Below, piece by piece: positions 33,492 to 49,621 of a stretch of DNA of 64,000 nucleotides. Position 1 is the stretch's first letter. Every line of letters begins with the position of its first letter. This DNA comes from Myxococcota bacterium. Its GTDB lineage: Bacteria > Myxococcota_A > Polyangia > Nannocystales > Nannocystaceae. The position numbers and the translations under genes are program-made. The stretch covers positions 1-64,000 of the forward strand of contig JBCCHT010000018.1 of the NCBI GenBank assembly GCA_039028615.1, read 5' to 3'. A model generated the notes under the pieces. That model saw only the letters and a list, made by a program, of their open reading frames with translations, did not search any database and was not told the origin of the DNA.

Positions 33492-34496
33492 ATGCTCGTG
33501 ACCCTTCGTCGACGCGCATGGCTACGAGGTGCAGGTGCCGGTCTCGGCTTGGCGAGCTACGGGCTCGGCGTCCCCGGCTTGCCCCTTCGCCGCGCGCAGG
33601 CTTCGATGGCACCGCGAGAGACGGTGCTCGAAGAAGCCAAGTCGCCGTACAACCACATCGTGATCGCCGAGAACGGCGACATCGTCACCATGTACTTCGT
33701 GGTCGACGGCGTGTTCTACATCGAGTCGCGGCTCGACCGTAGTCACCCCAAGAGCCTCGACCTCGACTACACCCGCACCATGATGGCGGGCTTCCTGCTC
33801 CAGCCTCGGCCCAAGCGTCTGTTGATGATCGGCTTCGGCGGGGGGCAGATCAGCAACTACTTGTTCGAGCGGGTCCCCGACCTGGAGATCGACGGCGTGG
33901 ACATCGATCCCGAGGTGATCCGCCTGGCTCGCAAGTACTTCGACGTCCCCGAGAGCCCGCGCTACCGGACCCATGCCGCCGACGGTCGGCTCTTCGTGGA
34001 GAAGGCCGCGCGCGAGCCCGGCTGGGACATGATCTTGCTCGATGCGTTCCGCGGGGTGTTCGTGCCGCTGCACCTCAAGACGCGCGAGTACTACCAGGCC
34101 TTGTACGAGCACCTGTCGCCCAAGGGCGTGGTCGTGGCCAACCTTCATAACGGCACGCCCATGTACAAGCACGACCGCACCACCTTCGCCGACGTGTTCC
34201 CGCACGGCTATGCGTTCCATACCGAGCGGGGGCGCCAGACCGTGTATGTGGCCTCGGCCGACAAGGAGATCGCCAACACCTACGAGATGCGGGCGAATGC
34301 CGTGAAGGCGCAGCCCGCCTTCGACTTCGACATTCGCGGGATCTCGTCACGCTGGTATCTCGAGGAGGACTGGGACAAAGAGCGCGCCCAGGTCCTGCAC
34401 GACGACTTCTCGCCCGAGAAGCTCGAGCAAGGCATCGATCGCCACAACCAGATCTGCGACGGCGAAGACTGCGACTACGCCTACCCCACGCGCTAG
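33492..34496 (+). CDS. Spermidine-synthase-like SAM-binding protein with Tat-type signal
   Basis: SPYNHIVI, LDLDYTRTM, LMIGFGGG, VDIDPEV, DGRLF, ILLDAF; N-terminal RRRAWL..AQA. Confidence 0.82.
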   Translation: MLVTLRRRAWLRGAGAGLGLASYGLGVPGLPLRRAQASMAPRETVLEEAKSPYNHIVIAENGDIVTMYFVVDGVFYIESRLDRSHPKSLDLDYTRTMMAGFLLQPRPKRLLMIGFGGGQISNYLFERVPDLEIDGVDIDPEVIRLARKYFDVPESPRYRTHAADGRLFVEKAAREPGWDMILLDAFRGVFVPLHLKTREYYQALYEHLSPKGVVVANLHNGTPMYKHDRTTFADVFPHGYAFHTERGRQTVYVASADKEIANTYEMRANAVKAQPAFDFDIRGISSRWYLEEDWDKERAQVLHDDFSPEKLEQGIDRHNQICDGEDCDYAYPTR

Positions 34497-37400
34497 GGGA
34501 ACAGGTCGACCTTCACGCCGAAGCTGAAGGTCAGCGGTGCGCCGGGGCGGATCCCGAAGGGGCGGTACGACGCGACGTAGGCGTTGTTGGTCAGGTTGGC
34601 GCCCTGTCCATAGACCCGGAAGCGATCGAGCACGCGGACCTCGACCGAAGCATCGAGCACGAAGAAGCCGTCGATGCGCTCGCCGTCGGGGATGTCTCCC
34701 TGGCCGGCGATGTCGCGCATGGCTCCGGTGTAGCTCGGGCTGACCACGACGTCCCAGCGCGACCCGCCGACGCCGACGGTGCCGCCCGCGAGATGCTCGG
34801 GCAGGTAGGGGAGGGCATCGCCTTCCTCGATCTCCCCCCACTGGGGGAAGGCCGACGAGAAGTCGCTGCGGAAGCGCGACCCGGTGTACGTGTAGCGAGC
34901 GCCGAGCTCGAACCCGAAGCCGTTGTCGAAGCGGTGGCGATAGCGGGCGAGCGACTCGAGGCCGTACACGAGCACCGCGCCCGCGTTGAACTGGTCGCTG
35001 CCGTCACCGTCGACGCAGCCGGCGGAGAAGGTACATGCGCCGATGAGGTTGTTGTAGTCGCTGGCGAAGCCCACCGCCTCGACCCATAGCCCTTGCCAGA
35101 TCGAGCGCAGACCTGCCTCGTAGTTGAGGCTGAACTCCGGCTCCACCTCTTCGGGCTGACCGGGGGCGACGGGCGAGAACCCGCGGTGCACTCCGGCGAA
35201 GGCCTGCAGCCACGGGGTGGCCTGGAACAGCGTGCCGATGCCCGGCGTCAGAGCGGTGTCCATGCGGCGGTCTTGGCTGTCGGCCAGCTCGTTGATGAAG
35301 CGCGACGACACGATCTCCATGCGCAGGCCAGGGGCGACCGTGAAGCGATCCCAAAAGGTCAGCGCATCGTGCACGTGGAAGGCGGCCGCCACGGACGAGC
35401 CTTGGTTCGTCACCGTCGGCGTTCGCGGGCCACCATCGGAGACCATCACACCCGAGATCATGTTGAACGAGTCGGAGGTGTGGTTGCGGTTGATCCGGTC
35501 GTGGTGCACCCGGGCCCCGACCTCCAGCTCCTGCTTGATCTTCTCCCACTTGGGCTTCCAGCGGAACGCGGACTGCACACCTTGGCTGACGAAGCGGCGG
35601 TCGTTGTTGGCGACCAGCAGGGTGTGCTGGGGTAGCTGCGAGTCCTGGTCGCCGCGGAGGATGGCCGCGAACACGGCGGCCTGGCCCCCGTCGGGCTGAG
35701 CCAGGATGTCGGTGAGGGCGGGGCCTCCAGAGAAGCGATCGAGCCTCCGCCACACGCGAGCAAAGTCGTGACGATAGAGCCGGGCCTCGACCTCGAGGGT
35801 GTCGCGCTGACGCAGCAAGTAGGTCAGCTCGGCCTGCGAGCGCCACCAGCTCATGTTGTCCTCGTCGCTGGCGGCGTAGCGGCGATAGGGCGTGCTCTCG
35901 AAGTCGGCCCGGGTCAGCCCGAGATAGGTCTCGTTCGAGTTCTCGGAGCCGAGACCCACCTTGGCTTCGACCTCGTGGGTGATCCGTCGGCCTTCGCCCG
36001 GGGTCCGGTAGCCGAGCTTGAGCATCGAGTCGTTCTTGATGAACCCGGTGTTGCCCCCGGTGTCGAGCTCCTTGAACCCGTTGGTCTGGATCCGTGCCGC
36101 CTCGATCAAGATGCCGAAGCCCTTGTAGCGGGTGCCGTAGTAGGCGTGGCCCTTCGCGTAGCCGAAGCGACCGCCGGCCAGGTCGACGCCGCCTTGGTGC
36201 TCGTCGGGGATCTCGCGGGTGCGCAGGTTGATCGAGCCGCCGATCGTGTTGGGCCCGTACTGGATCGAGCCGGGCCCTTTGTAGACCTCCATGCCGACCA
36301 AGCGGGTGGTGAGCGGGAAGTAGTAGGCGGCGGGTGCCGAGTAGGGGGCGGGGCCGAGGAGGATGCCGTCCTCGAGCAGGTTGACCTTGGCGGAGCGATC
36401 CGGGTTGGCGCCGCGCAGGCCGATGTTGGGGCGCAGGCCGAAGCCGTCCTCGCCGCGCACGTAGACGCCGGGCACCGTGTTGAGCACGCGGTGCACGTCG
36501 TCGTACTCGTGCCGCTCGAGTTCCTTCTCACCGATGATGTGCGCCGAGCCGGCGACGCGGGGGATCTCGTCGGCGGGGAACATCGAGCCGACCTTCACCA
36601 TGCGGACTTCGCTGTCGTCGTCGTCGGCGACGGCATCGGCGGGGTCTTCGAGCGGGACCTCTTCGGTGGGGATGAACTCGGGCTCGGGCTCGGGCTCGGC
36701 GGCGGGTTCGGGCTCGGGCTCGGGCTCGGGTTCGGGTTCGGGCTCGGGTGCGGGCGTCTCGGGCTCGGACTCGGTCGGTTCGCCTTCCGCAGACGTGGGC
36801 TCGGTCGGCTCGGACTCGGTCGGCTCGCTCGAAGGCTCTGCCTCGGCGCCGGGCTCCGCCGACTCCGGCGAAGCATCGGGAGCCGCGGTGTCCTCGGGTG
36901 CGTCGCCGGACGGCTCGGTCCCTTCGGAGGATGTTGGCTGTGCAGCGGCAGGGCGAGCCACCAACAGTGCGAGCAAGAGCGCGGCCGTCGTCGTCGTAAC
37001 GCGATGGCTTCGAACACTATCGACCAGAGGACCCAAGAGCATGGACATGACGCGATCGAATCGGTGGTTGGCTTCCTCGAGACCGTAGTCCTGCGGCGCT
37101 TCGTCGGGGCTGGGCGCCCAGCTGCCGAAGATCCGGTCCCAGAGTGCGAGCCATGTACCAAAATTTGCGTGTTGTTGTTCGAGCAGCCGCCCGTGATGGA
37201 GCTGATGCTGCGCGGGTGAGATGAGCCACCGCTCGACTCGGCCGAAGCTCAGCCAGACGTGGGAGTGCCGGAGGTTCGCGCCGAAGAGGTTGAACGAAAA
37301 CCCGAAGACGCCGATGCCCAGCAGCTCGATCGGCCGCGCCGAGCCAGCGAAGAGGTAGGCGAACAAACCGGTGATCGACGCGGTGACGAGCAGTCCGCGT

Positions 37401-37933
37401 CCGTCGTAGAGCAGCGTCTCCACCGGATGCGTGCGGTACAGCGTCAGCGGGGTGAGCACCCGCGCGGAGTGGTGCACCTGATGGAACGCCCACAGCCGCC
37501 GCACGCGGTGCATCAGCATGTGCAGGGCGAAACGACTGAAGTCCCAGCCGACGAACAGCACGCCCGTGTAGAGGATGGCCACCGTCATACGGTTCCAACC
37601 CAGCTCGGGTGGAGGACCGAGCCATCGGTGCAACGACAGTCCGACCCACAGGGTCGCGGCGGTCGTCGCGGCGAGCCACGGGATGCGCCACAGCCCGAAC
37701 AACAACGCCTTGATGAACAGCAAGGTCACGTCGGCGCGGCTCGAGGTGCTCGTCCACGTGGAGGGCCGAAACAGCCCCTCACGCAGGGCACGAGTGCCCC
37801 GACGCAGCCCCAGCAGCAGCCAGGGCAGGACGATCGCCGTGGCGAGGAAGAGCCAGAAGATCCGCTCGCCCGGATCGTTCAGGGCGCGCAAGGGCTGCGA
37901 CAACGCGTCGAGGATGTCGCGCCCGAACTCCAT
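34493..37933 (-). CDS. Fusion of sterol desaturase/fatty-acid hydroxylase domain and FecA-like TonB-dependent receptor
   Basis: His boxes HMLMH, HQVHH, HQLHH; signal-like AALLLALLVARPAAA; PE linker; plug VPGVYVRGEDGFGLRPNIGLRG, EVYKGPGSIQYGPNTIGGSINL; barrel end NLTNNAY..PGAPLTFSFGVKVDLFP. Confidence 0.88.
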   Translation of the reverse strand: MEFGRDILDALSQPLRALNDPGERIFWLFLATAIVLPWLLLGLRRGTRALREGLFRPSTWTSTSSRADVTLLFIKALLFGLWRIPWLAATTAATLWVGLSLHRWLGPPPELGWNRMTVAILYTGVLFVGWDFSRFALHMLMHRVRRLWAFHQVHHSARVLTPLTLYRTHPVETLLYDGRGLLVTASITGLFAYLFAGSARPIELLGIGVFGFSFNLFGANLRHSHVWLSFGRVERWLISPAQHQLHHGRLLEQQHANFGTWLALWDRIFGSWAPSPDEAPQDYGLEEANHRFDRVMSMLLGPLVDSVRSHRVTTTTAALLLALLVARPAAAQPTSSEGTEPSGDAPEDTAAPDASPESAEPGAEAEPSSEPTESEPTEPTSAEGEPTESEPETPAPEPEPEPEPEPEPEPAAEPEPEPEFIPTEEVPLEDPADAVADDDDSEVRMVKVGSMFPADEIPRVAGSAHIIGEKELERHEYDDVHRVLNTVPGVYVRGEDGFGLRPNIGLRGANPDRSAKVNLLEDGILLGPAPYSAPAAYYFPLTTRLVGMEVYKGPGSIQYGPNTIGGSINLRTREIPDEHQGGVDLAGGRFGYAKGHAYYGTRYKGFGILIEAARIQTNGFKELDTGGNTGFIKNDSMLKLGYRTPGEGRRITHEVEAKVGLGSENSNETYLGLTRADFESTPYRRYAASDEDNMSWWRSQAELTYLLRQRDTLEVEARLYRHDFARVWRRLDRFSGGPALTDILAQPDGGQAAVFAAILRGDQDSQLPQHTLLVANNDRRFVSQGVQSAFRWKPKWEKIKQELEVGARVHHDRINRNHTSDSFNMISGVMVSDGGPRTPTVTNQGSSVAAAFHVHDALTFWDRFTVAPGLRMEIVSSRFINELADSQDRRMDTALTPGIGTLFQATPWLQAFAGVHRGFSPVAPGQPEEVEPEFSLNYEAGLRSIWQGLWVEAVGFASDYNNLIGACTFSAGCVDGDGSDQFNAGAVLVYGLESLARYRHRFDNGFGFELGARYTYTGSRFRSDFSSAFPQWGEIEEGDALPYLPEHLAGGTVGVGGSRWDVVVSPSYTGAMRDIAGQGDIPDGERIDGFFVLDASVEVRVLDRFRVYGQGANLTNNAYVASYRPFGIRPGAPLTFSFGVKVDLFP
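36680..36752 (-). repeat. Coding Pro-Glu hexanucleotide repeat in the receptor linker
   Basis: (GGCTCG/GGTTCG)n on the plus strand encodes PEPEPE... Confidence 0.8.
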
Positions 37934-37945
37934 CGACCCCCGGCG

Positions 37946-39232
37946 TCAGTCGTGATCGCCGGCACCCTCGGCGGGGATCGTCAGCATCAGCGCCATCACG
38001 AAGGGTCCCTTGAGGGTGTCGGTGACGTTCTTGACCGCGGCGTGCACCGCTTCGCCCTGCGCCGTGTCGGAGGCGATGACCTGCGCGAGCGGGGCATCGA
38101 GCGCTTCGATGGTGGCGATGGCCGAGTCGATGTCCGCGAGCAAGGTCGAGGCGATCTGCCCTTCACCCATTTGCTCGAGCAGGTCGTCGAAGCCATCGGC
38201 GGTCTCGGGATCGGAGCCGCCCTGGATGAGATCTCGGAGCACGCTCAGGTTGGCGACGATGGCCGGTCCGGCGTCGGCGCTCCAGGGGTTCTCGAGAAGG
38301 TCGAGGCAGGGCACCGCATCGCAACCGGTGACGAGCCCGAGCGGCAGGCCGAGCTTGGCGTCTTTGGTCTGCTTGTCGACGTAGAACATCGACCGGAAGA
38401 TCTCGTCGAGGGCCTCGACATCGCTGGCGTAGGGCGAGTCGCCGGATCCGGGATTGGCGAGGAGCGCCGCGTAGTCGTCACCCGCCGGGTCCCAGCGCGT
38501 TGCGAGGGTGCTGGCCTGATCGGCGATGTGTCCCGCGAGCACGGCCGCGTAGGTGGCCCGTCGACTGGCCCGCTCGTCGTCACTCAGCGCGGCCCAAGGC
38601 CCGTCGAGCTGGACCTGCGTCGGGCACGTGTGCTCGTCACCCGCGGCGAAGAGCAAGTACTCGAGCGCATCGAGACCGTAGGCCCAAACGAGCTCCGTGA
38701 CGAAGAACGTGTCAGCCGCGTAGTCTTCGTCGGCCAGCGCTCGATCGACCGCACAGGTGTCGGCCGTGGGCCACGAGTAGATCTCGTCTCGAACGTCTTC
38801 GCCCGCGATGCCGGCGAGCGACGACGCGGCCGGACCGACCTGCATCAGCTCGAGCCGCTGCCACTGCGACATCGTCTCGCGCCACGAGTCCTGGGCGGCT
38901 TGCAGGGTGGCCTCATCGGTATGCGCGGCGGCGTAGGCATCGACGGCGCTCTGCAGCGACGCGGCCTGGGTGGCGAAGTCGGCCGTGCTCGGCACGATGA
39001 CCTGGGTCGCGATGCTGGCGAGCACATCCTGGCGGGTGACTTCGCTCGAGCCGTCCGAGGTCCCGTCGGCAGACTCTGTGCCATCCTCATTACCCGAGTC
39101 GTCGTCGCTGCTGTCGTTGCTGCCCCCGGAGTCCTGGCAGGCCCAGCCCAGAACACCGAGGCCGGCCAAGACGAGAGGGAGGAACCAGGCTCCGCGGGAT
39201 GCGGGCGAATTGGATTGAGAGTGCGCAGGCAT
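37946..39232 (-). CDS. Imelysin-family (IrpA/IruB-like) lipoprotein
   Basis: Lipobox LGWAC; AAQDSWRETMSQWQRLELMQVGP, IYSWP, GLDALEYLLF, C-terminal EGAGDHD. Confidence 0.88.
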   Translation of the reverse strand: MPAHSQSNSPASRGAWFLPLVLAGLGVLGWACQDSGGSNDSSDDDSGNEDGTESADGTSDGSSEVTRQDVLASIATQVIVPSTADFATQAASLQSAVDAYAAAHTDEATLQAAQDSWRETMSQWQRLELMQVGPAASSLAGIAGEDVRDEIYSWPTADTCAVDRALADEDYAADTFFVTELVWAYGLDALEYLLFAAGDEHTCPTQVQLDGPWAALSDDERASRRATYAAVLAGHIADQASTLATRWDPAGDDYAALLANPGSGDSPYASDVEALDEIFRSMFYVDKQTKDAKLGLPLGLVTGCDAVPCLDLLENPWSADAGPAIVANLSVLRDLIQGGSDPETADGFDDLLEQMGEGQIASTLLADIDSAIATIEALDAPLAQVIASDTAQGEAVHAAVKNVTDTLKGPFVMALMLTIPAEGAGDHD

Positions 39233-39271
39233 GGCGAAAACCGAGCCTCATCATAGATGAGCGCCGAAGGT

Positions 39272-39290
39272 GATACTGATATTCAGTATT
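39272..39290. promoter_or_regulatory. Fur box
   Basis: GATACTGATATTCAGTATT matches 15/19 of GATAATGATAATCATTATC; upstream of the imelysin gene. Confidence 0.75.
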
Positions 39291-39348
39291 GCCCGCTACT
39301 GCTCGTAGCAAGGCGAAAAGTTGTGCGCAATCTCTATTCTTTTTAATT

Positions 39349-39363
39349 TGAAATTGATTATCA
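39349..39363. promoter_or_regulatory. Second Fur box (7-1-7 form)
   Basis: TGAAATT-G-ATTATCA matches 12/14 of TGATAATnATTATCA, in an AT-rich divergent promoter region. Confidence 0.7.
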
Positions 39364-39428
39364 TCTATCGTAAGCCTCGGCGCGCGAGCGTGGGCCTGCA
39401 CCCGCGACGCGATCAAAGGCAATTGGCC

Positions 39429-40724
39429 ATGAGACTGCTGACCGAGACTTCCAAGACTTTTTCGCTGCTCACCGGCGCTGCGTTGATCGCGGCTCTTTCC
39501 GGGGGCTGTGGCGACGATAGCTCCGCTGACACCGATACCGGCAACGACGGGACGACGACGACGGACACGCCCGCGACGACCGACACGCCGGACACCGACG
39601 ACGCCACGCCGCAGACGACCGGCGAGACCGAGGCTGACACCGAGGCTGAGGACGAGACGACCGCCGGCGAGACCGGCGAGCCCGCCTGCGAGGTCGAGCC
39701 CGGCGAGTGGGACGCACCCGACTGGGATGCCAACGCCGCCGACGCGCTGGCCGTCCGCGCTGCCCTCGACACCCTGACCGGCGGCACCACCATGCGTGGC
39801 GCAGAGACCGGCGACGTCGACATCGCTTCGATCGACGAGCTCACCGCCCTGTGGGACGGCGACCCCAGCCTCGCCGACGCCGCCAACCCCGGCTTCCTTC
39901 CCGTGGTGCAGGACTCCTTCGAGGAGTTCATGACCATCCTCGCCGCGGGCGAGCAGGACCTCACCGACGAGATGGGCGTGTGGACGCCGGGTCCCGACGG
40001 CGGCATCTGGGCCGAGGACTTCCGCGGCATCAACGAGGGTGGCATGGAAGTTCGCCAGATCGTCGACAAGGGCGGTTACTCGGCGGGCCTCATGTACCAC
40101 TACGCCGCGACCCAGACCGAGGGCGACATCACCCCGGCCACCATGGACGCCATCGCGGCGGCGTGGGGCAACAACGCCGACCTCGACCCGGAGGGTGACC
40201 TCACGGACGCGGCCGGCTACGCGCTCGGCATGGGCTTCCACGCCGACATGGCTTCGGCCCTGACGCGCGCCAAGGCCTTCGCGGGCGACGAGGCCTGTGG
40301 TGCCGAGCGTGACGCCGCCGTGGTGCAGTTCTTCAACCTGTGGGAGCAGTCGATGTACGCCCGCATGGTGTTCTACGGGAACCGTGCCGAGGGTCGCCTG
40401 CTGAAGGCCACCGAGGACGCGAACTTCGCCGCCGTCCTCCACGACCTCTCCGAGGGCGTGGGCCTCATCGCCGGCTTCACCGGTCTGCCCGACTACGAGG
40501 GTCCCCTTGCCGGCACCCGGATCTCCACCCAGGCCGACGTGGACGCGGTCATGGACGTCTTCGGCGTCGATCTCGGCGACCTCGGTGCCTCCACCAGCGG
40601 CCCCTTCGTCGAGAGCCTTCCCGACTTCGAGGCCGCGGTCACCGGCTCCGAGGAGATCGTCATCGACGTGTTCGGCGTGACTCCCGAGGAGATCGCCGAG
40701 TACGCGATGCCCACCCCGGGCTGA
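39429..40724 (+). CDS. Iron-regulated helical lipoprotein (DUF4856-like)
   Basis: Lipobox LSGGC, T/D/E tether, motifs RQIVDKGGYSAGLMY and HDLSEGVG reminiscent of DUF4856; divergent from the imelysin gene. Start ATG 39429. Confidence 0.65.
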   Translation: MRLLTETSKTFSLLTGAALIAALSGGCGDDSSADTDTGNDGTTTTDTPATTDTPDTDDATPQTTGETEADTEAEDETTAGETGEPACEVEPGEWDAPDWDANAADALAVRAALDTLTGGTTMRGAETGDVDIASIDELTALWDGDPSLADAANPGFLPVVQDSFEEFMTILAAGEQDLTDEMGVWTPGPDGGIWAEDFRGINEGGMEVRQIVDKGGYSAGLMYHYAATQTEGDITPATMDAIAAAWGNNADLDPEGDLTDAAGYALGMGFHADMASALTRAKAFAGDEACGAERDAAVVQFFNLWEQSMYARMVFYGNRAEGRLLKATEDANFAAVLHDLSEGVGLIAGFTGLPDYEGPLAGTRISTQADVDAVMDVFGVDLGDLGASTSGPFVESLPDFEAAVTGSEEIVIDVFGVTPEEIAEYAMPTPG

Positions 40725-40748
40725 TCACTTTTCCGCTCAGTCACGCGG

Positions 40749-40797
40749 CGCGGGCCCGAGCCTCCTCCTCCGAGGCGCGGGTCCGCGTTTTTCTTTT
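40749..40797 (+). terminator. Intrinsic terminator
   Basis: CGCGGGCCCGAGCCTC-loop-GAGGCGCGGGTCCGCG followed by TTTTTCTTTT. Confidence 0.8.
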
Positions 40798-40815
40798 GGT
40801 TCGAGCCGGTCGCGT

Positions 40816-42087
40816 TCAGTCCTCGTCGACCGAGAACACCATGCCCGCGCCGCGCAGGCGCTCGAGCAACGCGTCACCCATCGCCGACGCGGGCGTGATG
40901 ACGCCGCCCTCGCTGTCGAGCGGGTCGATGGCCAGGCAGCGCGCCGCCTCGCCCAGCATGATCGCGGTGCCGCCGTAGCCCGGGTCCTTGAAGCCCTGCA
41001 CGCGCCCGCGGAGCTCGACGCTCTTGCCGTTCACCTCGCTGCGGGCGTGCAGTCGCATCTTGAAGAACCCGTTCTCGCGCTGCTCTTCGTTGGGGCCTTC
41101 GCCCGGCGAGGGCAGCACGAAGCGCTGTAGCAGGGCCCGCGTGGGGTCGAAGCCGACCGCGGCAAAGAACCCCCCGAGACCGCCCGTGATGGCGCAGGCC
41201 TTGGCGAAGCCCTTGGGCCCGGCGCGGAAGCTCATGAACTCCTGGTAGCTGAAGTCGGTGCCGTAGGCGTGACCCATCAGGCTGTTGGAGCGACGCACGA
41301 CCCGAGTGTTGACGGCCGCCATCACGAAGGGCGCGGTCCATCCGTTGATGTCCTCGTCGAAGCGCACGCCCATGTAGTCGCCATCATCGGGGCCGCGGGG
41401 GCCTCCCTCCGGCTCGAGCGCATAGGGGTCACCGAGCAGTCGGCGGATGCTCTTGTCTTTGCGCATCTGCTCGGCCAGCTCGAGCATGCTGGCCACGGTG
41501 CCGCCCGACGCCCCGCCCTTGGACGAGGTGACCGCGAGCTTCACCTGCCGCGCGGGCACGCCGTGCCGGGCCTGCATCCCTCGCTGCATCATCAGCGCGC
41601 CGAGGTCGGAGGGGATCGAGTCGAAGCCGCAGCAGCAGACGATGCGCGTGCCCTTTTCGGCCGCGGCCTCGTGGTGCTCGTCGATCATGCGGCGAATGAA
41701 GGTGACCTCCCCGGTGAGGTCGCAGTAGTCGGTGCCCTGGCGGACGCACGCCGCGACCAGCTCGGCCCCGTACTTGGCGTAGGGGCCCACGGTGGTGCAG
41801 ACCACGGTGGCCTTGCTCGCCAGTGCGTCGAGGGCCTCGGCGTCGAAGCTGTCGGCCAGCTCGAGCGGGATGTCGGCCGCGCTGGGGTCGACGATGGCCG
41901 CCAGCTCGCGACGGATCTGCTGGAGCTTGTCGAGGTTGCGTCCGGCGAGGGCGATGCGGAGGTCGCCGTCGCTGCGGGTCCGCACGAGGTGCTCGGCGAC
42001 GAGCCGACCGGTGAAGCCGGTGGCGCCCCAGATCACGATGTCGTAAGGGCGGCTGCGATCGTGTTGGCGCACGGCGGAGTCGGTCAT
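40816..42087 (-). CDS. Saccharopine dehydrogenase-like oxidoreductase (trans-acting enoyl reductase family)
   Basis: YDIVIWGATGFTG, TTVGPYAKYG, YCDLTGE, CGFDSIPSDLG, SGGT, DPGYGGTA. Confidence 0.9.
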   Translation of the reverse strand: MTDSAVRQHDRSRPYDIVIWGATGFTGRLVAEHLVRTRSDGDLRIALAGRNLDKLQQIRRELAAIVDPSAADIPLELADSFDAEALDALASKATVVCTTVGPYAKYGAELVAACVRQGTDYCDLTGEVTFIRRMIDEHHEAAAEKGTRIVCCCGFDSIPSDLGALMMQRGMQARHGVPARQVKLAVTSSKGGASGGTVASMLELAEQMRKDKSIRRLLGDPYALEPEGGPRGPDDGDYMGVRFDEDINGWTAPFVMAAVNTRVVRRSNSLMGHAYGTDFSYQEFMSFRAGPKGFAKACAITGGLGGFFAAVGFDPTRALLQRFVLPSPGEGPNEEQRENGFFKMRLHARSEVNGKSVELRGRVQGFKDPGYGGTAIMLGEAARCLAIDPLDSEGGVITPASAMGDALLERLRGAGMVFSVDED

Positions 42088-42172: not shown

Positions 42173-43498
42173 TCAGCGTTTGCGACGCCGTGCGGGGCTG
42201 CGGGCGAGGGCAGCCGAGACCGCGCGTTCGCGAGCAGTGGGTGTCGGGCCGAGCTGCAGCTGCCCCTTGGCGTCGACGTACACGCTGCGATGCACCACCA
42301 ACAGCGTGGTCGGTGAGACGAGCTCGAGCGTCACCGGTTTGTCCGCCGCCAGGGCGAGATCGACCTTGGGGTCCGTCCACTTCGGATGGCCCGCCGCCAT
42401 CGCCTTGGCCAACGAGGCGACGGGATCGTCGAGCTGAAAGCACGCGGGCGTGGGCGTGGGCGTGCCCTCCGGGTGGGGGCTGTGCACGGAGATCGCAGGC
42501 GCGTCCCCGTCGGGGGATAGTGACAGCCCGCTCTGGCCGCTGGGGTTGAGCGTGACTCGGCCGAAGGTGCCGCTCCACTCCGGGGTCGCTCGACAGGCAC
42601 TGCTCGCCGTCATGGCGCTGCGAACCGCGGGCTTCTTGGCATCGACGAACACCACGCCGTTCATCTCGGGATCGACGAGCAGGTAGCGGGCGCCGAGGTC
42701 GTGCGGGCGCGTGCGCCATTGCTCGAGCGCGGCCGTGACCCGGTCGATGCGGGCCTGCACGGGCTTTTGTGCGGCAGGCTCGGTGGCGGCGAGTTCCTTG
42801 CGAAGTGCGGCCAGAGCCGACTGCAACCCGGTGTACTCCGCGTGCGATGGTGCATGCCCTCCCATCGCTTCGTGGGCCTTGCCCTCGATGATCGAGGCCT
42901 CCAGCGCCTCGATGAGCGCGTCGTCGATCGCCAGCTTCTGCACGCGAGGCTTCAGCGTCTTCGCGTCGAGCCGGCCCTCGGCGAGGTGGCTGCTCACCAA
43001 CAGCCAACGATCGGTCAGCGCCAGGTCGAGCGCGGCCGGATCTTCTGGATCGGCTTCGGCGGCATCGAGCACATCGAGCCCATAGTGGCTCGGGTCGAGT
43101 CCGTGGCGGCGGAGCTGTCGGAGGGCGCGGAGGACCTGCACCGCATTGCCGTTGAGGTGCCCCTGCCAGGTCCACGCCGGTTGGTGGTCGCGCTGGGCGT
43201 AGAAGCGGCGGACCGCGTCGGGCACGAACAGCCTCGCCGTGTTCGCGGGCTCGGCCAGGTGAGCTTCGATCGCCGCCTTGGCTTTGGGGTCGTCGGTCAC
43301 CTGCGGTACCCCGCCGACGTCGAACTTGACCACCGTCCGCGCCGGTCGAACCCGCGGCTTCTTCTCCGGCTCGGGTTTCTGCAGCACGATCGGCTCGGGC
43401 TTGGGCGCCGGCATCGGGTCGGGCGTGCAGGCCCCGAGCATGGCCGCGACGCCGAGTCCGACCGTGATCGCGCGAGAGCTTCGGTGCGGGTCGCTCAC
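42173..43498 (-). CDS. Lipoprotein related to YcbB/LdtD L,D-transpeptidases (scaffold domain, degenerate catalytic domain)
   Basis: Lipobox MLGAC; RFYAQRDHQPAW, HGLDPSHY, DLALT, P.HAEYTGLQSAL, LEQWR..P.DLG.RYLLV. Start GTG 43498. Confidence 0.7.
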   Translation of the reverse strand: MSDPHRSSRAITVGLGVAAMLGACTPDPMPAPKPEPIVLQKPEPEKKPRVRPARTVVKFDVGGVPQVTDDPKAKAAIEAHLAEPANTARLFVPDAVRRFYAQRDHQPAWTWQGHLNGNAVQVLRALRQLRRHGLDPSHYGLDVLDAAEADPEDPAALDLALTDRWLLVSSHLAEGRLDAKTLKPRVQKLAIDDALIEALEASIIEGKAHEAMGGHAPSHAEYTGLQSALAALRKELAATEPAAQKPVQARIDRVTAALEQWRTRPHDLGARYLLVDPEMNGVVFVDAKKPAVRSAMTASSACRATPEWSGTFGRVTLNPSGQSGLSLSPDGDAPAISVHSPHPEGTPTPTPACFQLDDPVASLAKAMAAGHPKWTDPKVDLALAADKPVTLELVSPTTLLVVHRSVYVDAKGQLQLGPTPTARERAVSAALARSPARRRKR

Positions 43499-43533
43499 GC
43501 CGGGGACCTTAGCGCACTCGCCCGCGCGGGAGC

Positions 43534-44946
43534 TCAGGTCCCCGTCGCGTGCGGCTGTTGACCGTCGATGAGCACCTGCGCCCGGCGGATCGTCGCCTCG
43601 GTGGGATCGGGCCCGAATAGCAGCTGCGCCACCAGGTTGGGGTCGGGCGTGGTGCCGTCGAGGTCGCGTAGGCGATCGCTCAGCTCGCTGACCACGAACG
43701 CATGGGCTCGCTCGCGGAGGTGCTCGGCGGAGGTGATCCCCGGCGCCAGCTTGGCGCTGTGGTTGCTCCAATTGAAGTCGGGCAGGCCATCGCGCGGGCC
43801 CGGGTCGGCGCAGATGAAGCACCCCGCCTTGAAGATCAGGAACAGCGCGTCGTTGGTCGTCTTGCCCGCGTGATCGAGCCGCTCTCCGTTGAGGTGGTCG
43901 ATGGCGGAGCTGCGCAGCTCGTGGTGGAGCACGATCGACGGCGTGCCCTCGGCGGTGGTGGACAGCTGGAACACGTGATCGGTGATGACCGTCCAAATGT
44001 CGAAGCCGTGGATGTGCAGCCGCAGCTTGCCCGGCGACAGCAGCAGGCGGCGATACAGGATCAGGGTGGGCGGCCGTGGCTCGCTGACGGTGAGGGGCAC
44101 GGCCGGCGCGGGCGTGGGCGCCGAGGCGATCGCTGCCGCCGTCTGATCGGGGGGCACCGCGACCTCCCAGTCGAGCGCCGCCTGATTGACGATGACCCCC
44201 AGCGCCTCGGCCCGGTCGCGGAGGAAGCTGCTGAGGGTGTCGCTGCCGAAGCGCGTGGGATCGAAGGGCTGACCCAACGCGCGGTCGAGCAGAGGCTTGA
44301 CCCGGGCGAAGTCCAGGCGACCCCGCTGGGCGAGGATGCCCCGCAGCACGCGGCCGACGTCGTCGAGGCTCCGCGCGGGTGCCGGGGGTCGCTCGTCGGC
44401 GGCCACCAGCGCTTCGAACTCGTGGAACTCGTCGCAGTAGGCGGTGAGCGTGCGCGCGATGCTGCCGTGGGCCCCGAGCCCGACGACGTAGGCGTTGCGC
44501 TGCCGCAGCTCGAGGACGAGCGGGATGAAGTCCTTGTCGCCCGTGACCAGGATGAAGAAGTCGACGTTCGACACCAGGCTGATGGCGTCCATCGCCAGCC
44601 GCATGTCGGCCGCGTTCTTCGACACGCCTCGGCCCCCGCCGGGGAAGCGGAACACCTGCACCGGCTCCATGCCCTGGTCCATCAGCAGGGTGGGCACGCT
44701 CCGCAGGAAGTAGTCGCGACGCGGGCGGCCGACCTCGATGTCGTCGTTGAGTCGCGATGCGCTGAAATCGGCGTAGGCTCGGCGCACGATCAGGCGACGT
44801 TTCTCGCCGACCAGCTCCCGTGCGAAGCCGGACAGGCGCTCCAGGTCGCGGTTGAACTCGTAGTGGTCGTCGGCGCCGGCCTCCGTGACCTCGCGGGCGA
44901 GGTAGAAGTTCTCGAGGTCGATGAGCAGCGCCGCGTTCCTCGACAT
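43534..44946 (-). CDS. NYN-domain (PIN-like) protein with OST-HTH/LOTUS-like and extra C-terminal domain
   Basis: ALLIDLENF, RRAYADF, KNAADMRLAMDA, LVTGDKDFIPLV..LR, CDEF; FDPTRFGSDTLSSFL. Start ATG 44946. Confidence 0.88.
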   Translation of the reverse strand: MSRNAALLIDLENFYLAREVTEAGADDHYEFNRDLERLSGFARELVGEKRRLIVRRAYADFSASRLNDDIEVGRPRRDYFLRSVPTLLMDQGMEPVQVFRFPGGGRGVSKNAADMRLAMDAISLVSNVDFFILVTGDKDFIPLVLELRQRNAYVVGLGAHGSIARTLTAYCDEFHEFEALVAADERPPAPARSLDDVGRVLRGILAQRGRLDFARVKPLLDRALGQPFDPTRFGSDTLSSFLRDRAEALGVIVNQAALDWEVAVPPDQTAAAIASAPTPAPAVPLTVSEPRPPTLILYRRLLLSPGKLRLHIHGFDIWTVITDHVFQLSTTAEGTPSIVLHHELRSSAIDHLNGERLDHAGKTTNDALFLIFKAGCFICADPGPRDGLPDFNWSNHSAKLAPGITSAEHLRERAHAFVVSELSDRLRDLDGTTPDPNLVAQLLFGPDPTEATIRRAQVLIDGQQPHATGT

Positions 44947-45044
44947 GGTCGACTCAGAGTACCGAAATTCCCGAGTCGATGAACGAGGGCTTCGCTCGAC
45001 AAGGCCGTTTTCCCGCCCGGAATCCGCCATGCTCAGTCGATCCT

Positions 45045-45986
45045 CTAGCCGGTGGGACCGATGGCGGTCGCCGGTGACAGCTCGCCCCAGGTCCGGTGCA
45101 GCATGGCGGGTGGCGCAATGGCTTCCGATGCGAACGCATCGAGAACCCGCAGGTGAACGTCGGTCTCGAACAGTTTTTCGTAGCGGGTATCCAGCACGTA
45201 CGCCTTGACGCGGAGGCGGACCGCCACGTGTTTGTCGAGAATTACCTGGTTGACGAGCACTACGACGGGTTTTTCGAGGAATACGTAGCGACTGGAAACC
45301 GCTGCTTCGGTGACCAGCTCGCGCGCGAGGCGAACGTTTTGGTCCGGTCCGATGTGGAAATCCATGACCACCTGCATGTCCAGGGCGCCGTAGTTGCCGT
45401 TGGAGGTGATCTCGCTGAGGAACTTGTTGTTGGGGATCGTGACCGTGTTGTCGTCGAGGGTCTGGAGCCGCACCGAGCGTAGGCCGATGGCGGTGATGTC
45501 CCCGTATTGCCCACCAAACGAGACTCTATCCCCCACCTGAAAGGGCCGATCGATCATGATCATGATGCCCGCGATGAACGACGCCACGACGTCTTTGATC
45601 GCGAAACCGACGGACACGGCCACCGTGCCGCCGATCAGCGTCAGCACGTTGTCGTTGAGCCGGAAGCTCAGGGCGATGACCGTGACACCCGTCCCGATGT
45701 AGACCAGGAACTGGGCGATGGTCGCGACCTTCTGCAGTAGCAGGCGGCGACTGGGAAAACGCTGGCTGAGTCGCGCCACGCTGTCATGCAAAAAGCGCAT
45801 GGCGAGCGCGACCCCGATGACCACGAAGATCGAGGTCACCACCCCGCTCCATCGCATCAGCCGGGCGATCTGCCCCAGGCTTTCGAAGCTGGTCTCCTCG
45901 CTGGCCCATGCGGGCGCCGACCGCAGCAACGCGGCGAGGGCCGAGCCGAGGGAGAGTACGAGGCGGGGTCGTCGCGACGAAGTCAT
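45045..45986 (-). CDS. Small-conductance mechanosensitive channel (MscS family)
   Basis: VSVGFAIKDVVASFIAG..DRPFQVGDRV..G.I..IGLRSVRLQTLDDNTVTIPNN. ATG 45986 overlaps the upstream TGA. Confidence 0.92.
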   Translation of the reverse strand: MTSSRRPRLVLSLGSALAALLRSAPAWASEETSFESLGQIARLMRWSGVVTSIFVVIGVALAMRFLHDSVARLSQRFPSRRLLLQKVATIAQFLVYIGTGVTVIALSFRLNDNVLTLIGGTVAVSVGFAIKDVVASFIAGIMIMIDRPFQVGDRVSFGGQYGDITAIGLRSVRLQTLDDNTVTIPNNKFLSEITSNGNYGALDMQVVMDFHIGPDQNVRLARELVTEAAVSSRYVFLEKPVVVLVNQVILDKHVAVRLRVKAYVLDTRYEKLFETDVHLRVLDAFASEAIAPPAMLHRTWGELSPATAIGPTG

Positions 45987-48900
45987 GGCGTGGAGAGCAG
46001 GTGCTGGCGCTGCAGCACGGTGGTGATGGTGCGGTACCAGTGCCACGAGAGGCGGAGCCCGGCGTCGAAGGGCTCGATGTAGCCGCGGGCCTGACAAAAA
46101 CGCAGAGCGTCGGAGACGTCGGTGGGCGGGAGCTGAGTGGCGGCGACGACCTCGTGCTCGCGCGCCAGATCGAGGCGGACGATGGCCCGCAGCACGAACA
46201 ACAGCGGCAGCGACAGCGACTCGATCTCGGTGGCGGGCGGCTCCTTGAACAGTCGCACGACGGTGCGCGCGTCGGGCTCGACGAACAGCGACTCGCGGAA
46301 CGCATGCAGAGCCACCGCCGGGTTGCCCCGCGAGTGGTCCCAAAGCAACCGGTAGTAGCTGCTCTCGGTGCGCCCTGCGTCCGGCGTGCCGAGCTGCTCG
46401 ACCTGGCTGGGGACCACGAGGCCTTCGAAGCTCGGATCGATCTTCGCCACCTCGCAGCGCTTGCGGATGAGCCCCCCGAGCTGTCGCTCCGTCCACCGCG
46501 GCAGGTCGATGACCTGCTCGAAGAACACTCGATCGCCGCGGGCTCGCTCCAGGTAGTGCCACGCGGGCGAGCCGATGGCGAAGACCCACGAGACCTTGCC
46601 GCCCACCTGGCGCGTCAGCGCGATGAGATCGTCGAGCTCACGCAGGCCGCGGATCGCAGGTTGGATCAGTCGATGGGCGTCGTCGATCGCCACGATCCGC
46701 AACGAGCTTCGTCGCAGCGCTTCGGCCAGCTGCGGGCCCCGTAAGGTGCTGTCGCCCGCGAGGGCGGCGATGCGGGGGATGAGGCCCTCGAGGCCGATCT
46801 CGGGGCAGGTCACCACCTTGATGTCGTCGGAGCCCACGCGCTGTCGAAGGCGTCGCAGGAAGGTGGTCTTGCCCATGCCGCGCTCGGCCACGATGGCGCT
46901 GAGGGTGGACCGCGGCGTCTCGGCCAGCGTAGCGACCAGCTCGAGCTCCGACTGTGTCGCCTCGACGACCTCGGGGGCGTCGACCTCGTCGGGATCGAAG
47001 CACTCGTAGCAATGGGCATCCACTGGCTCGACCGACTCCGCCTTCGAGGCCGCGGCGGCGCGCTTGGTGACCTCGCGGCGAAACAGGTAGGCCAGCACGC
47101 GGCGGGTGGTCTCGAGGTCCGACGCGTAGCGCAGGATCCACTTGCCCAGGCCGCGTACCATCAGGATTACCGCGCCCACCGTGGCGGCGAAGAAGCCGAT
47201 GCGAGCGTCGGTGCGCGGGCGAAGCCAGCGGGCGAACACGTTGTCCTCGGGCAGCATGCCCAGGCGCTCTTGGATCGTCGGTCGCCAGCGGATCACCAGA
47301 TAGATCGCCACCGGGCCGCTGAGCACCCAGCAGGTCGAGAGCATCCACGAGTAGATTGCCCCTTGGCCGACCATGGCCGAGGTCAGCCCGAGCAGCAGGC
47401 CGACCACGATCACGCTCATGCCCACCAGGCGCAGCGAGTGGATCCGCAGCGCCGACGTGTCCACCCCTTCGCGGGAGAACAGCGCTTGCCGGGCCGCCAG
47501 CGCGTCGAGCAGCAGGATCACCGCCAGACCCAGCAGCACCCAGCGCACCACGATCCACAGCAGCGTCAGCTCGGGCAGATCGTCGAGGTTGCCCGCGAGG
47601 CCCAGCAGCAGCCATAGCGCCAGCAAAAGCTCCAGCGGACGACGAACCCGATCGAAGTACCAAAGGCCCGACGACAGCGTATTGGTCCAGCGCGGTCGAC
47701 CCGGGCGACGGATGAGCCACCGACGGGCGCGCAGCACCAGGGTGTTCGCGTTCTTGCGCCACGCCCAGACCAGCAGCACCACCAGCAACACCTGCACCGC
47801 GCCCACGAACACGCGAATCGGCGAGCTTCGCAGGCGATCGACCAGCAGGTCCTTGTAGTGCGGCAGCTTGAGCAGGTGGAAGCCCAGCTCCACCGAGATC
47901 TGATCGAGCTCGCGTCGGACCTGATCGATGCCCTCGGGGCCGAACCCCGTGACCTCGCCGCGCAGATCCGTACTGGCCAGCTCCAGCAGCGCCAGGCGGG
48001 TGCGGTTGAGCAGCACCACATCGTCGCGCAGGGCTTGAGCGAGCTCCCACGCGACCTCTTGCTCGAGCTGGGTCAGGGCGTCTTCGTTGTCGCGCAGCTG
48101 CAGGCGCAGCGAGGACAGGTCGCCCCGGTCGACATCCGCGGGCAGGTCTCGGTCGAGCCCTTCACCCACGAGCGGCACGCCCGCTCCCGCGTCGCTCACC
48201 CGCCGCAGCTCGTCGCGGAGTCGGGTGCGAGCCAACGACAGGTCGTCGCGGATCGTCCGGTACAGCAGATCCGCTTCTTGCTCGAGGCGCGCGCCAAACA
48301 GCGTGCCCTGCTCGAGGTCGTCCACGCGACGGCTCCACTCCAGCGCGCGGTCGTGGTTTTCGATGCGCTCGGACTTGCGACGGTTGATGTCCGCCTCGTA
48401 CCGGGCCTGCGCTTCCTTGATCGAGAACAGCCGCGCTCGCTCTTCGGCCAGCGTTCGGTTCGCGTTCGTGCTGGCTCGACGCGCCGCTTCCAGCGCTTGC
48501 TCGCGGTCGACGGCGGCCTGGTCGGCCTCGGCCTCCGCTTCGGAGATCTGCTGGATCGCGTCCTCGCCCAGCGCTTCGGCCTCTTCTTCGGCTGCCTTGG
48601 CTGCTTCGACCTCCGCGGCTTCGGCTGCGGCCTGAGCCTCGGCTTCGGCCTTGAGCGCTTGCTCGCGTCGCGTCTCGTGCGTGGTGAACAGGACGGCGCG
48701 CTCGGAGTCCGAAAGCGCGAGGAACTCGCGGCGAAGACCATCGAGGCGTGCCTCGGCGCGGGCCAGGGATTCGGTGAGAGCGTCGGGCTCGTCGGCGGTC
48801 GGCGTCTCGGGCTTCGCGTCCGAGTCTGGTTGTTCTTCGGGCTCCGACCTCGCCGGGGCATCGGTCGGCGATGCTTCGGTGGGGCTCGGCCGTGCATCGG

Positions 48901-49621
48901 GCGACGCCGCGGACCCGGCTGGCCACGTGTCGCGCCGACTCTCCGACAGCGCGGCTTCGTGCCGATCGTTGAGGTCGAGCCGCAGCAACGACTCGGGATC
49001 GATCGAAAGCTCGAGCGTCCCGGCCATGAACGCTTCGAGGCGTTCGGCATGGACGGTGATGCGCTCCAGTCGTCGCTGACTCCGAGCCGAAGCCTCTCGC
49101 TCGTCCACCACCGCCGATTGCCGTCGCGCGTGGGTGGCCCACGCCGCTTCGCGTTCGCTCGGGCTCAACCGCAGGTAGGCCCGCAACGCCCGGTCGAGCT
49201 CGGCCGCGGGATCGAGCGCACCCGTCGGCTCCATCGCGGGCTCGGGCACGGGCTGGGCCCGCCGACTCCGTCGCGTGGGTGCGGGCACGGGGGCCGCGGG
49301 CTCGCCGATGGCTCGCAGCAACGCCAACAGCCGCGACCCCTGCGGCCCGACCACCGCGGCATCCCGCAGGTCGATCACGAACAGATCCGCCGGATCGACG
49401 GCCAACTCGAGCGTGCCCGCGATGAACGCCTCGATCCTGCGCGCCCGAACCCTCCGCGGATCCACCGTCGTCGCCGGAGCCTTCGAGGCCCCCTCGGGAC
49501 CCGCTCGAGCCGCCGGGTCCGCCTGCCCCTCACCTGGCGGCTGGGCGCCAGCAAACCCCGCAAACGAGGCCAGAAGCGCCACCAGGGCGAAGATCGGGGT
49601 CAGACGCGACATGAGACGCAC
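45983..49621 (-). CDS. Large membrane protein: signal peptide, coiled coil, multi-TM region, C-terminal P-loop NTPase and winged-helix-like end
   Basis: Signal ..ASFAGFAGA; E/A/R-rich coiled coil; several TM helices; Walker A AERGMGKTT, Walker B IVAIDD, SRGNP motif. Confidence 0.8.
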   Translation of the reverse strand: MRLMSRLTPIFALVALLASFAGFAGAQPPGEGQADPAARAGPEGASKAPATTVDPRRVRARRIEAFIAGTLELAVDPADLFVIDLRDAAVVGPQGSRLLALLRAIGEPAAPVPAPTRRSRRAQPVPEPAMEPTGALDPAAELDRALRAYLRLSPSEREAAWATHARRQSAVVDEREASARSQRRLERITVHAERLEAFMAGTLELSIDPESLLRLDLNDRHEAALSESRRDTWPAGSAASPDARPSPTEASPTDAPARSEPEEQPDSDAKPETPTADEPDALTESLARAEARLDGLRREFLALSDSERAVLFTTHETRREQALKAEAEAQAAAEAAEVEAAKAAEEEAEALGEDAIQQISEAEAEADQAAVDREQALEAARRASTNANRTLAEERARLFSIKEAQARYEADINRRKSERIENHDRALEWSRRVDDLEQGTLFGARLEQEADLLYRTIRDDLSLARTRLRDELRRVSDAGAGVPLVGEGLDRDLPADVDRGDLSSLRLQLRDNEDALTQLEQEVAWELAQALRDDVVLLNRTRLALLELASTDLRGEVTGFGPEGIDQVRRELDQISVELGFHLLKLPHYKDLLVDRLRSSPIRVFVGAVQVLLVVLLVWAWRKNANTLVLRARRWLIRRPGRPRWTNTLSSGLWYFDRVRRPLELLLALWLLLGLAGNLDDLPELTLLWIVVRWVLLGLAVILLLDALAARQALFSREGVDTSALRIHSLRLVGMSVIVVGLLLGLTSAMVGQGAIYSWMLSTCWVLSGPVAIYLVIRWRPTIQERLGMLPEDNVFARWLRPRTDARIGFFAATVGAVILMVRGLGKWILRYASDLETTRRVLAYLFRREVTKRAAAASKAESVEPVDAHCYECFDPDEVDAPEVVEATQSELELVATLAETPRSTLSAIVAERGMGKTTFLRRLRQRVGSDDIKVVTCPEIGLEGLIPRIAALAGDSTLRGPQLAEALRRSSLRIVAIDDAHRLIQPAIRGLRELDDLIALTRQVGGKVSWVFAIGSPAWHYLERARGDRVFFEQVIDLPRWTERQLGGLIRKRCEVAKIDPSFEGLVVPSQVEQLGTPDAGRTESSYYRLLWDHSRGNPAVALHAFRESLFVEPDARTVVRLFKEPPATEIESLSLPLLFVLRAIVRLDLAREHEVVAATQLPPTDVSDALRFCQARGYIEPFDAGLRLSWHWYRTITTVLQRQHLLSTP

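Follow-up and report, generated by a model that had tools for sequence, protein, structure and literature searches.

The 64,000-nucleotide stretch analysed here (the window; positions 1 to 64,000 of contig JBCCHT010000018.1 in the Myxococcota bacterium assembly GCA_039028615.1) carries a candidate polyprotein gene, P0001, in which a membrane domain of the fatty acid hydroxylase/sterol desaturase family and a TonB-dependent receptor occupy one reading frame (Table 1). A first-pass annotation made from the letters alone had described this frame as uninterrupted, and all of its 1146 codons are indeed open. The three histidine boxes lie where they had been placed (H138-H142, H151-H155 and H243-H247), as do both internal ATG codons and the basic, hydrophobic segment that ends in Ala-x-Ala (R308 to A331/Q332). 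The Pro/Glu-rich stretch that follows is present as described, and its length from predicted cut to plug is 127 residues instead of the proposed 110 or so. Pfam places FA_hydroxylase at residues 125-271, the plug at 460-566 and the TonB barrel at 681-1114; these receptor matches, with FecA as the top structure in Foldseek, agree with the FecA-like plug and barrel suggested earlier. In an AlphaFold2 model (mean predicted local distance difference test, pLDDT, of 86.4), two confident domains are linked by helix 314-324 and a disordered linker, and low confidence is limited to residues 323-355 and 362-457.

Table 1. Features of the fused gene and of the genes and sites next to it (positions in the window; a full stop marks no strand).
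Feature	Position	Strand	Support
Fused gene P0001, 1146 amino acids: desaturase-like domain, internal signal, acidic linker, plug, barrel	34493..37933	-	
Membrane His-box domain (FA_hydroxylase/sterol desaturase family), residues 1-307, about 5 transmembrane segments	37013..37933	-	PF04116 E 6.7e-22
Desaturase C-terminal helix, residues 295-304, with both internal Met codons	37022..37051	-	alignment, model
Sec-type signal within the chain, with basic n-region, hydrophobic core (residues 312-326), Ala-x-Ala and the cut A331/Q332 predicted for signal peptidase I	36941..37012	-	
Disordered extension, rich in Pro/Glu, at the N-terminus of the mature receptor	36566..36940	-	pLDDT <50
TonB-dependent receptor plug	36236..36556	-	PF07715 E 1.3e-13
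TonB-dependent receptor beta-barrel, FecA-like fold	34505..36196	-	PF00593 E 8.8e-29
Gene for a lipoprotein of the imelysin family, 12 nt upstream of P0001	37946..39232	-	PF09375 E 6.3e-34
Imelysin C-terminus, conserved G-D-x-D; in the predicted complex it extends to the His boxes of the desaturase	37949..37960	-	alignment, complex model
Fur-box-like site, 4 mismatches, about 40 nt before the imelysin start	39272..39290	.	match to consensus
Second, weaker Fur-box-like site, 6 mismatches	39350..39368	.	
Divergent predicted lipoprotein gene, shared control region, no family	39429..40724	+	

By sequence comparison the fusion is real, conserved and not a matter of chance, because the architecture recurs in other genomes: among the 120 best of 573 homologues, 108 hold PF04116 and PF07715 together. 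These 108 extend down to about 40% identity, and Nannocystaceae, Myxococcota and the cultured species Paraliomyxa miuraensis (WP_266217192.1) are among the source labels of fused homologues. At the junction, a Logan contig from run X1, possibly the source of this very assembly, covers 36759-39500 with zero differing letters at a depth of about 23; positions 36670-36758, in the Pro/Glu repeat, were skipped as a repeat. This contig and the two-domain homologues rule out an assembly error at the junction.

What the homologues have kept at this position was scored downstream of the final conserved proline in the desaturase, for the 315 of 364 proteins whose match reached the domain end. Nearly all receptor fusions have a hydrophobic core there (129/131), with a net positive n-region in 121/129 and an AxA-like site in 119/129; strict A-x-A is found in 94/131, compared with 58.6 in shuffles (maximum 73). 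The corresponding count is 4 of 79 for stand-alone desaturases, or 3 of the 32 with tails of at least 22 residues. The type of signal, as read from these segments, follows the fusion partner: the core is followed by a Cys, forming a lipobox, in 73/75 imelysin fusions versus 6/131 receptor fusions. On this comparison the junction is a retained Sec signal. The helix just before it (residues 295-308 in the AlphaFold2 model) is also present in aligned stand-alone desaturases, and holds a Met in 35/131 fused and 13/79 stand-alone proteins. Hydropathy and the distribution of Lys and Arg, with no solved homologue as a check, fit five membrane segments and a cytoplasmic location of both the His boxes and the C-terminus, which is the orientation that the downstream signal requires. 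The genome of the window, G000, has matches to signal peptidase I, Omp85 and Fur.

We consider it probable that a single chain is cut by signal peptidase into a desaturase and a receptor. This cleaved-polyprotein reading was one of two offered in the first-pass annotation, and both the retention of the signal and the start-codon counts in homologues support it, the cleavage itself being predicted. A Fur-controlled iron-acquisition operon would yield one chain, and its desaturase part would be inserted co-translationally in the inner membrane with the His boxes and C-terminus facing the cytoplasm. The hydrophobic segment that follows would serve as an internal signal, by which the receptor would pass through Sec into the periplasm. 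After a cut by signal peptidase I between A331 and Q332, the spent signal would remain on the desaturase, and the released receptor would reach the outer membrane via the beta-barrel assembly machinery (BAM). Such a fusion may have arisen from translationally coupled neighbour genes, and tethering of the products would not be required.

A different origin of the receptor is conceivable, though improbable: the two genes could overlap in frame, with an internal start supplying most of the receptor and a lost stop giving the fused chain as a by-product. This pattern does hold for fusions of the desaturase to a solute-binding protein (SBP), where a junction Met is found in 13/14 proteins against 1.5 expected and an ATG with a strong Shine-Dalgarno (SD) sequence in 3 of the 5 loci read (L203-L205, SD -6.4 to -9.3); by these counts the SBP fusions keep an internal start, and the excess means that the Met-count test has power. 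Receptor and imelysin fusions stay at background, with a junction Met in 30/129 (28.8 expected) and 22/75 (19.6 expected), respectively. An in-frame ATG precedes the core in 15 of 45 distinct fused loci, versus 36% of 919 barrel control windows, and in 54 of 72 stand-alone receptors, of which 70 hold some ATG, GTG or TTG. None of these three codons occurs there in 7 of the 45 fused loci, and 83% of the barrel control windows hold one. Starts at background make internal initiation unlikely in the receptor fusions. P0001 itself has two ATGs, 16 and 14 codons ahead of the hydrophobic core, and split relatives begin their receptor at the same spot; however, both ATGs (37048 and 37042) lie inside the conserved desaturase helix, and neither is preceded by an SD sequence, as had been noted (anti-SD pairing of +0.3 versus -8.0 kcal/mol at the best 5´ candidate start, with an assumed anti-SD 8-mer; no 16S end was found in G000). 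The desaturase, moreover, would be made as a fused chain even given an internal start.

Several observations weigh against a cut single chain. Some ATG, GTG or TTG is present in the pre-core window of 38/45 fused loci, and 13/45 have a start with an SD energy of -4 or lower, to which the strong starts of the three SBP loci are to be added. The signal was scored with a simple rule set of our own, and an uncharged stretch of at least 19 residues, enough for an uncleaved anchor, occurs in 48/131 receptor fusions. The homologues are also related to one another and were gathered with fused queries, so that all of these counts overstate independence. On these counts, a minor internal start may be in use in receptor fusions.

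In three relatives (L085, L169 and L180) the desaturase and receptor are encoded by separate genes, whose stop and start overlap (GTGA) at the junction spot. A FastTree tree of 373 rows and 282 columns (rows with X or with a match starting after position 12 excluded) places them within the fused forms. Labels change 31 times on this tree versus 167 in shuffles, a difference that gives neither the number of origins nor the direction. Another candidate split form, L013, was dropped, its apparent break being due to a run of N within the linker. A one-to-one stoichiometry, offered earlier as the purpose of the fusion, is a conjecture; the three relatives above keep separate genes.

The second of the earlier readings, an uncleaved chain spanning the periplasm, fares poorly. 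The hydrophobic segment would be an anchor and the linker would bridge the periplasm, tethering both membranes. Its 127 Pro/Glu-rich residues and the long uncharged stretches mentioned above agree with such an arrangement, and a fusion of some EfeO imelysins to the EfeU permease is described in PMC3143127. However, among the 118 fused receptors in which the linker from cut to plug could be measured, it is no longer than 25 residues in 7 and no longer than 40 in 34. Acidic linkers just as long are also found on stand-alone receptors (10/10, with 66-204 residues), and together these counts make a periplasmic tether very unlikely. Cleavage motifs and the lipobox Cys are kept, and split forms exist.

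To our knowledge, few bacterial polyproteins are cut by signal peptidase. The cytochrome b-c1 precursor FbcH of Bradyrhizobium japonicum, reportedly described by Thony-Meyer and colleagues in 1991, gives two products from one gene and likewise joins a polytopic inner-membrane protein through an internal signal with Ala-x-Ala to an exported protein. At the level of sequence, P0001 has the features of a polyprotein of this kind: a single frame, a conserved internal signal and no kept receptor start. The two differ in that the products of FbcH stay in one inner-membrane complex, whereas here one product is an outer-membrane barrel, and in that relatives of P0001 use the junction for a lipoprotein (lipobox), a binding protein or a peroxidase. 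If P0001 is indeed cleaved, a barrel, or a lipoprotein in relatives, would be fed from the tail of a co-translationally inserted protein, a test for Sec, signal peptidases I and II and BAM.

The other partners came from homologue searches. The imelysin-fused desaturase makes up 84 of the best 120 matches, fusions to an Fe(III) SBP 11 of those 120 (Terasakiella sp. A23, WP_317684427.1, included), and fusions to a di-haem cytochrome c peroxidase are found in 2 proteins. A profile search of 301 genomes of the phylum found the desaturase in 50, in 57 match rows: 31 receptor fusions (this gene included), 2 imelysin fusions, 20 stand-alone forms, 2 with a signal that are interrupted and 2 split at the junction; the profile was made partly from fused forms, so the fusion shares may be inflated. 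With 31 of 57 rows being receptor fusions, a polyprotein would explain mis-annotation in many myxobacterial genomes. Of the 401 genomes in a phylum sample centred on a Pseudoalteromonas genome, 17 had a match, with one Fe(III)-binding-protein fusion, one creatininase fusion and no receptor fusion among them. Receptor and desaturase are separate adjoining genes in Colwellia, Pseudoalteromonas, Thalassotalea, Salinimonas, Halioglobus and Ketobacter; those gammaproteobacterial loci in which both halves gave matches were dropped as fusions, being two genes with the receptor first. The polyprotein and the link to iron in the first-pass annotation are supported; what it did not notice are the further partners of the desaturase, its split forms and its connection with the imelysin tail described below.

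Single chains of other composition were seen in passing. L217:1417-3279 (+) encodes a desaturase, a basic-hydrophobic segment and a creatininase-family domain; P0208 has a desaturase, an internal signal and a TonB C-terminal domain ahead of the receptor; P0234 has a desaturase, a lipobox and an unassigned domain with a weak match to an alpha-lytic prodomain; and in P0222 the desaturase is joined to a luciferase-like monooxygenase with the signal absent. In L200 (G019:C11) and the P0271 clade, the 3´ end of the desaturase gene is a leftover signal-like tail followed by exbB/exbD/tonB-family genes, and the tail looks as though the receptor part had been deleted.

The desaturase domain is assigned to its family by a PF04116 score of 78.8 bits versus a cut-off of 31 and by an Atlas feature match of 0.96 for FA_hydroxylase/sterol desaturase. 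Nine histidines (H138, H142, H151, H154, H155, H223, H243, H246 and H247) are invariant across 106 fused proteins. With all its His ligand boxes invariant, it resembles Scs7p, ERG3/ERG25 and OlsE, the membrane His-box di-metal enzymes of PF04116; it differs from them in that the predicted partner is a protein tail and not a lipid. The curated cut-off for the ornithine lipid hydroxylase OlsE (NF052566) was not reached (43.4 versus 475 bits). Fold searches with this domain gave no match at E <= 0.001 in Foldseek (weak Scs7p rows, prob 0.20) and none at Z >= 5 in a wide VIA search (Scs7p Z 3.5, rmsd 5.5, 173 aligned), and a PDB sequence search found nothing at E <= 1; these missing matches do not amount to a new fold. 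The best Foldseek match of the barrel is FecA (1kmp, E 7.5e-33), with which it has the plug and barrel fold in common. It differs from FecA-type receptors in its sequence (19% identity; 75.5 bits versus a curated cut-off of 1100 for the FecA equivalog NF041676) and in the acidic disordered extension before the plug.

The proposed role in iron uptake is supported by Fur-like boxes and by iron-related neighbour genes. The stronger site upstream of the imelysin gene is one of 13 strand matches with no more than 4 mismatches in 12.27 Mb, and the window holds no match with 3 or fewer. Among homologous loci, a Fur-like site (up to 5 mismatches) lies within 5 kb upstream in 32/52, mostly just before the first gene, and downstream in 1/49; these are predicted sites, and AT-rich promoters may raise the upstream counts. 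No sigma-70 promoter match was found in 34200-41000. A gene of the imelysin family lies near the desaturase in 67/83 loci and DUF4856 in 47. The divergent lipoprotein of the window has no Pfam match, and it was dropped as a candidate DUF4856 protein, BLASTP showing no similarity between the two; its relatives in L141, L144 and L150 are encoded on the upstream side of either the imelysin or the desaturase. A second operon of the same genome (L196, G000:C68:29700-40300) has an upstream Fur-like site and encodes a probable DUF4856 protein, an imelysin ending in G-D-T-D and a stand-alone desaturase.

The job of the enzyme may be linked to this imelysin neighbour. The predicted complex of desaturase residues 1-304 with the imelysin of the window scores 0.83, and the best of three controls 0.02; the score mark was reached by 116/157 solved complexes and 2/215 mismatched pairs, a rough guide since the alignments were our own. 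At least 86% of the contacts are shared between runs, with a partner pLDDT of at least 88. In the model, the imelysin body rests on desaturase loops predicted to be periplasmic (99-108 and 192-208), and imelysin residues 353-365 thread between the membrane helices, where the desaturase contacts include His-box residues 138, 151, 154 and 243. That the model draws on memory of a like complex is unlikely, as no solved desaturase of the kind was found by sequence. G362, D363 and D365 of the imelysin are invariant in 52 rows, and a D-x-D end is found in 66/67 imelysin rows from desaturase loci, in 39/39 from loci without a desaturase and in 73/75 fused forms.

In 36 of the 39 loci without a desaturase, the gene after the imelysin encodes an HTTM/vitamin K-dependent carboxylase homologue that matches human GGCX over 436 residues (E 2.7e-41). 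In GGCX, K218 and H160 are the catalytic Lys and His, and the residues matching them are kept in at least 95% of 49 rows of the homologue. Within 1 kb of the 124 imelysin rows in the 301 genomes, there is a desaturase in 44, a carboxylase homologue in 67, both in 0 and neither in 13. Pseudoalteromonas luteoviolacea DSM 6061 (L048) is an example of a strain with the desaturase, and Myxococcus (L042) of one with the carboxylase homologue. The homologue is a stand-in for the desaturase at other loci and not at the one studied here. Long open frames had suggested a carboxylase-receptor fusion, and none was found in 49 such ORFs.

With the same acidic tail beside two unrelated membrane enzymes, we tentatively infer that one may carboxylate and the other hydroxylate it. 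Hydroxylated and carboxylated Asp are Fe(III) ligand types of siderophore chemistry, and MloH, a bacterial orthologue of GGCX, reportedly provides a precedent in the carboxylation of Asp in malonomycin. The desaturase could thus oxidise, probably by beta-hydroxylation, an Asp in the D-x-D tail of the adjacent imelysin and turn it into a ligand for Fe(III), a proposal to which we give not quite an even chance. That both enzymes, desaturase and carboxylase homologue, make an iron ligand of the acidic imelysin tail is a tentative suggestion. Equally provisional is a broader picture, in which a protein-modifying di-iron desaturase would thread the periplasmic imelysin tail through its tunnel to form a siderophore-like beta-hydroxyaspartate ligand, the carboxylase homologue would be its equivalent elsewhere, and the desaturase would repeatedly have become a polyprotein leader for exported iron proteins.

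Speaking against this job for the enzyme are an active-site geometry with no confirming structure match in the fold searches, complex controls that were not tail-matched decoys, and the 12 of 57 desaturase rows with no imelysin within 4.5 kb. Covariation likewise showed no interface enrichment when the desaturase was compared with the final 110 columns of the imelysin over 130 pairs (effective 106), the top 25, 50 and 100 pairs including 1, 2 and 6 in the interface versus 0.9, 1.8 and 3.6 expected.

The covariation result and the unmatched controls agree with an ordinary lipid hydroxylase or desaturase that is co-regulated by Fur, as do the family annotation and the weak OlsE match; the model would then just fill a hydrophobic tunnel with a hydrophobic peptide. 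We regard this as unlikely in view of the strict either/or with the carboxylase homologue beside the imelysin (44/67/0) and of the imelysin in 49 of the 50 desaturase genomes. In L201 and L205, alphaproteobacterial-type SBP loci with no imelysin between, the upstream DUF4856 protein itself has an acidic tail, ending E-N-D (E-x-D), which is a further point against a lipid substrate. The same complex model would also fit a His-box protein that acts as an inner-membrane iron acceptor (a permease or reductase), to which the imelysin tail hands iron through the tunnel in the style of EfeO and EfeU. The EfeUOB model in PMC3143127 and the lack of a permease family among the recurring neighbours scanned in myxobacterial loci favour such a transfer. 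It too seems unlikely: the alternative gene for this slot encodes a full carboxylase homologue, whose catalytic Lys and His are kept, which points to chemistry on the tail, and in L205 the desaturase-SBP fusion is followed by genes for an ABC permease and an ATPase.

Modification of the tail by the desaturase, if true, would provide a substrate for two orphan families, the bacterial sterol desaturase-like proteins and the vitamin K carboxylase homologues, and an enzyme acting on the acidic tail of a neighbouring lipoprotein is possibly a new bacterial route to iron-grabbing proteins. IPPA-family imelysins and EfeUOB share the imelysin fold (3n8u, 3pf0). An IPPA tail also reads D-G-D in a primer printed in PMC3143127, and according to the same paper ferric ion did not stabilise recombinant imelysin produced in E. 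coli; a tail that must be modified could account for this absent ferric binding. The words desaturase, hydroxylase and carboxylase are absent from the part of that text searched. In Riemerella anatipestifer, RAYM_09794, an imelysin, a vitamin K-dependent gamma-carboxylase and a TonB receptor are up 2.1-3.1-fold under iron restriction, as given in a passage of PMC5609570. That locus, with consecutive locus tags, shares the imelysin, a membrane enzyme and the receptor with ours; it differs in having a carboxylase homologue in the enzyme slot and genes listed separately, and the passage names no substrate. No paper on the fusion itself was found by title or start of abstract, in a search not aimed at imelysin plus carboxylase, and the portions available of PMC8552747, PMC8055020, PMC7567364, PMC9360617 and PMC2964297 hold nothing on it.

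Some further genes lie near these systems. HTTM/carboxylase homologues are encoded in the genome of the window at G000:C11:114519-115289 and G000:C2:12595-13374, neither adjoining an imelysin match. At L057:13234-14850 (-) and 13 similar carboxylase-type loci, a DUF5122 beta-propeller lipoprotein is encoded upstream of the imelysin, roughly in the place of DUF4856. In the window, frames at 42173-43996 (-), 43534-45030 (-) and 45983-49621 (-) have Scaffold, NYN and AAA_22 domain matches, and a spermidine synthase-like gene at 33492-34496 (+) converges on the fused gene, the 3´ ends of the two sharing 4 bases.

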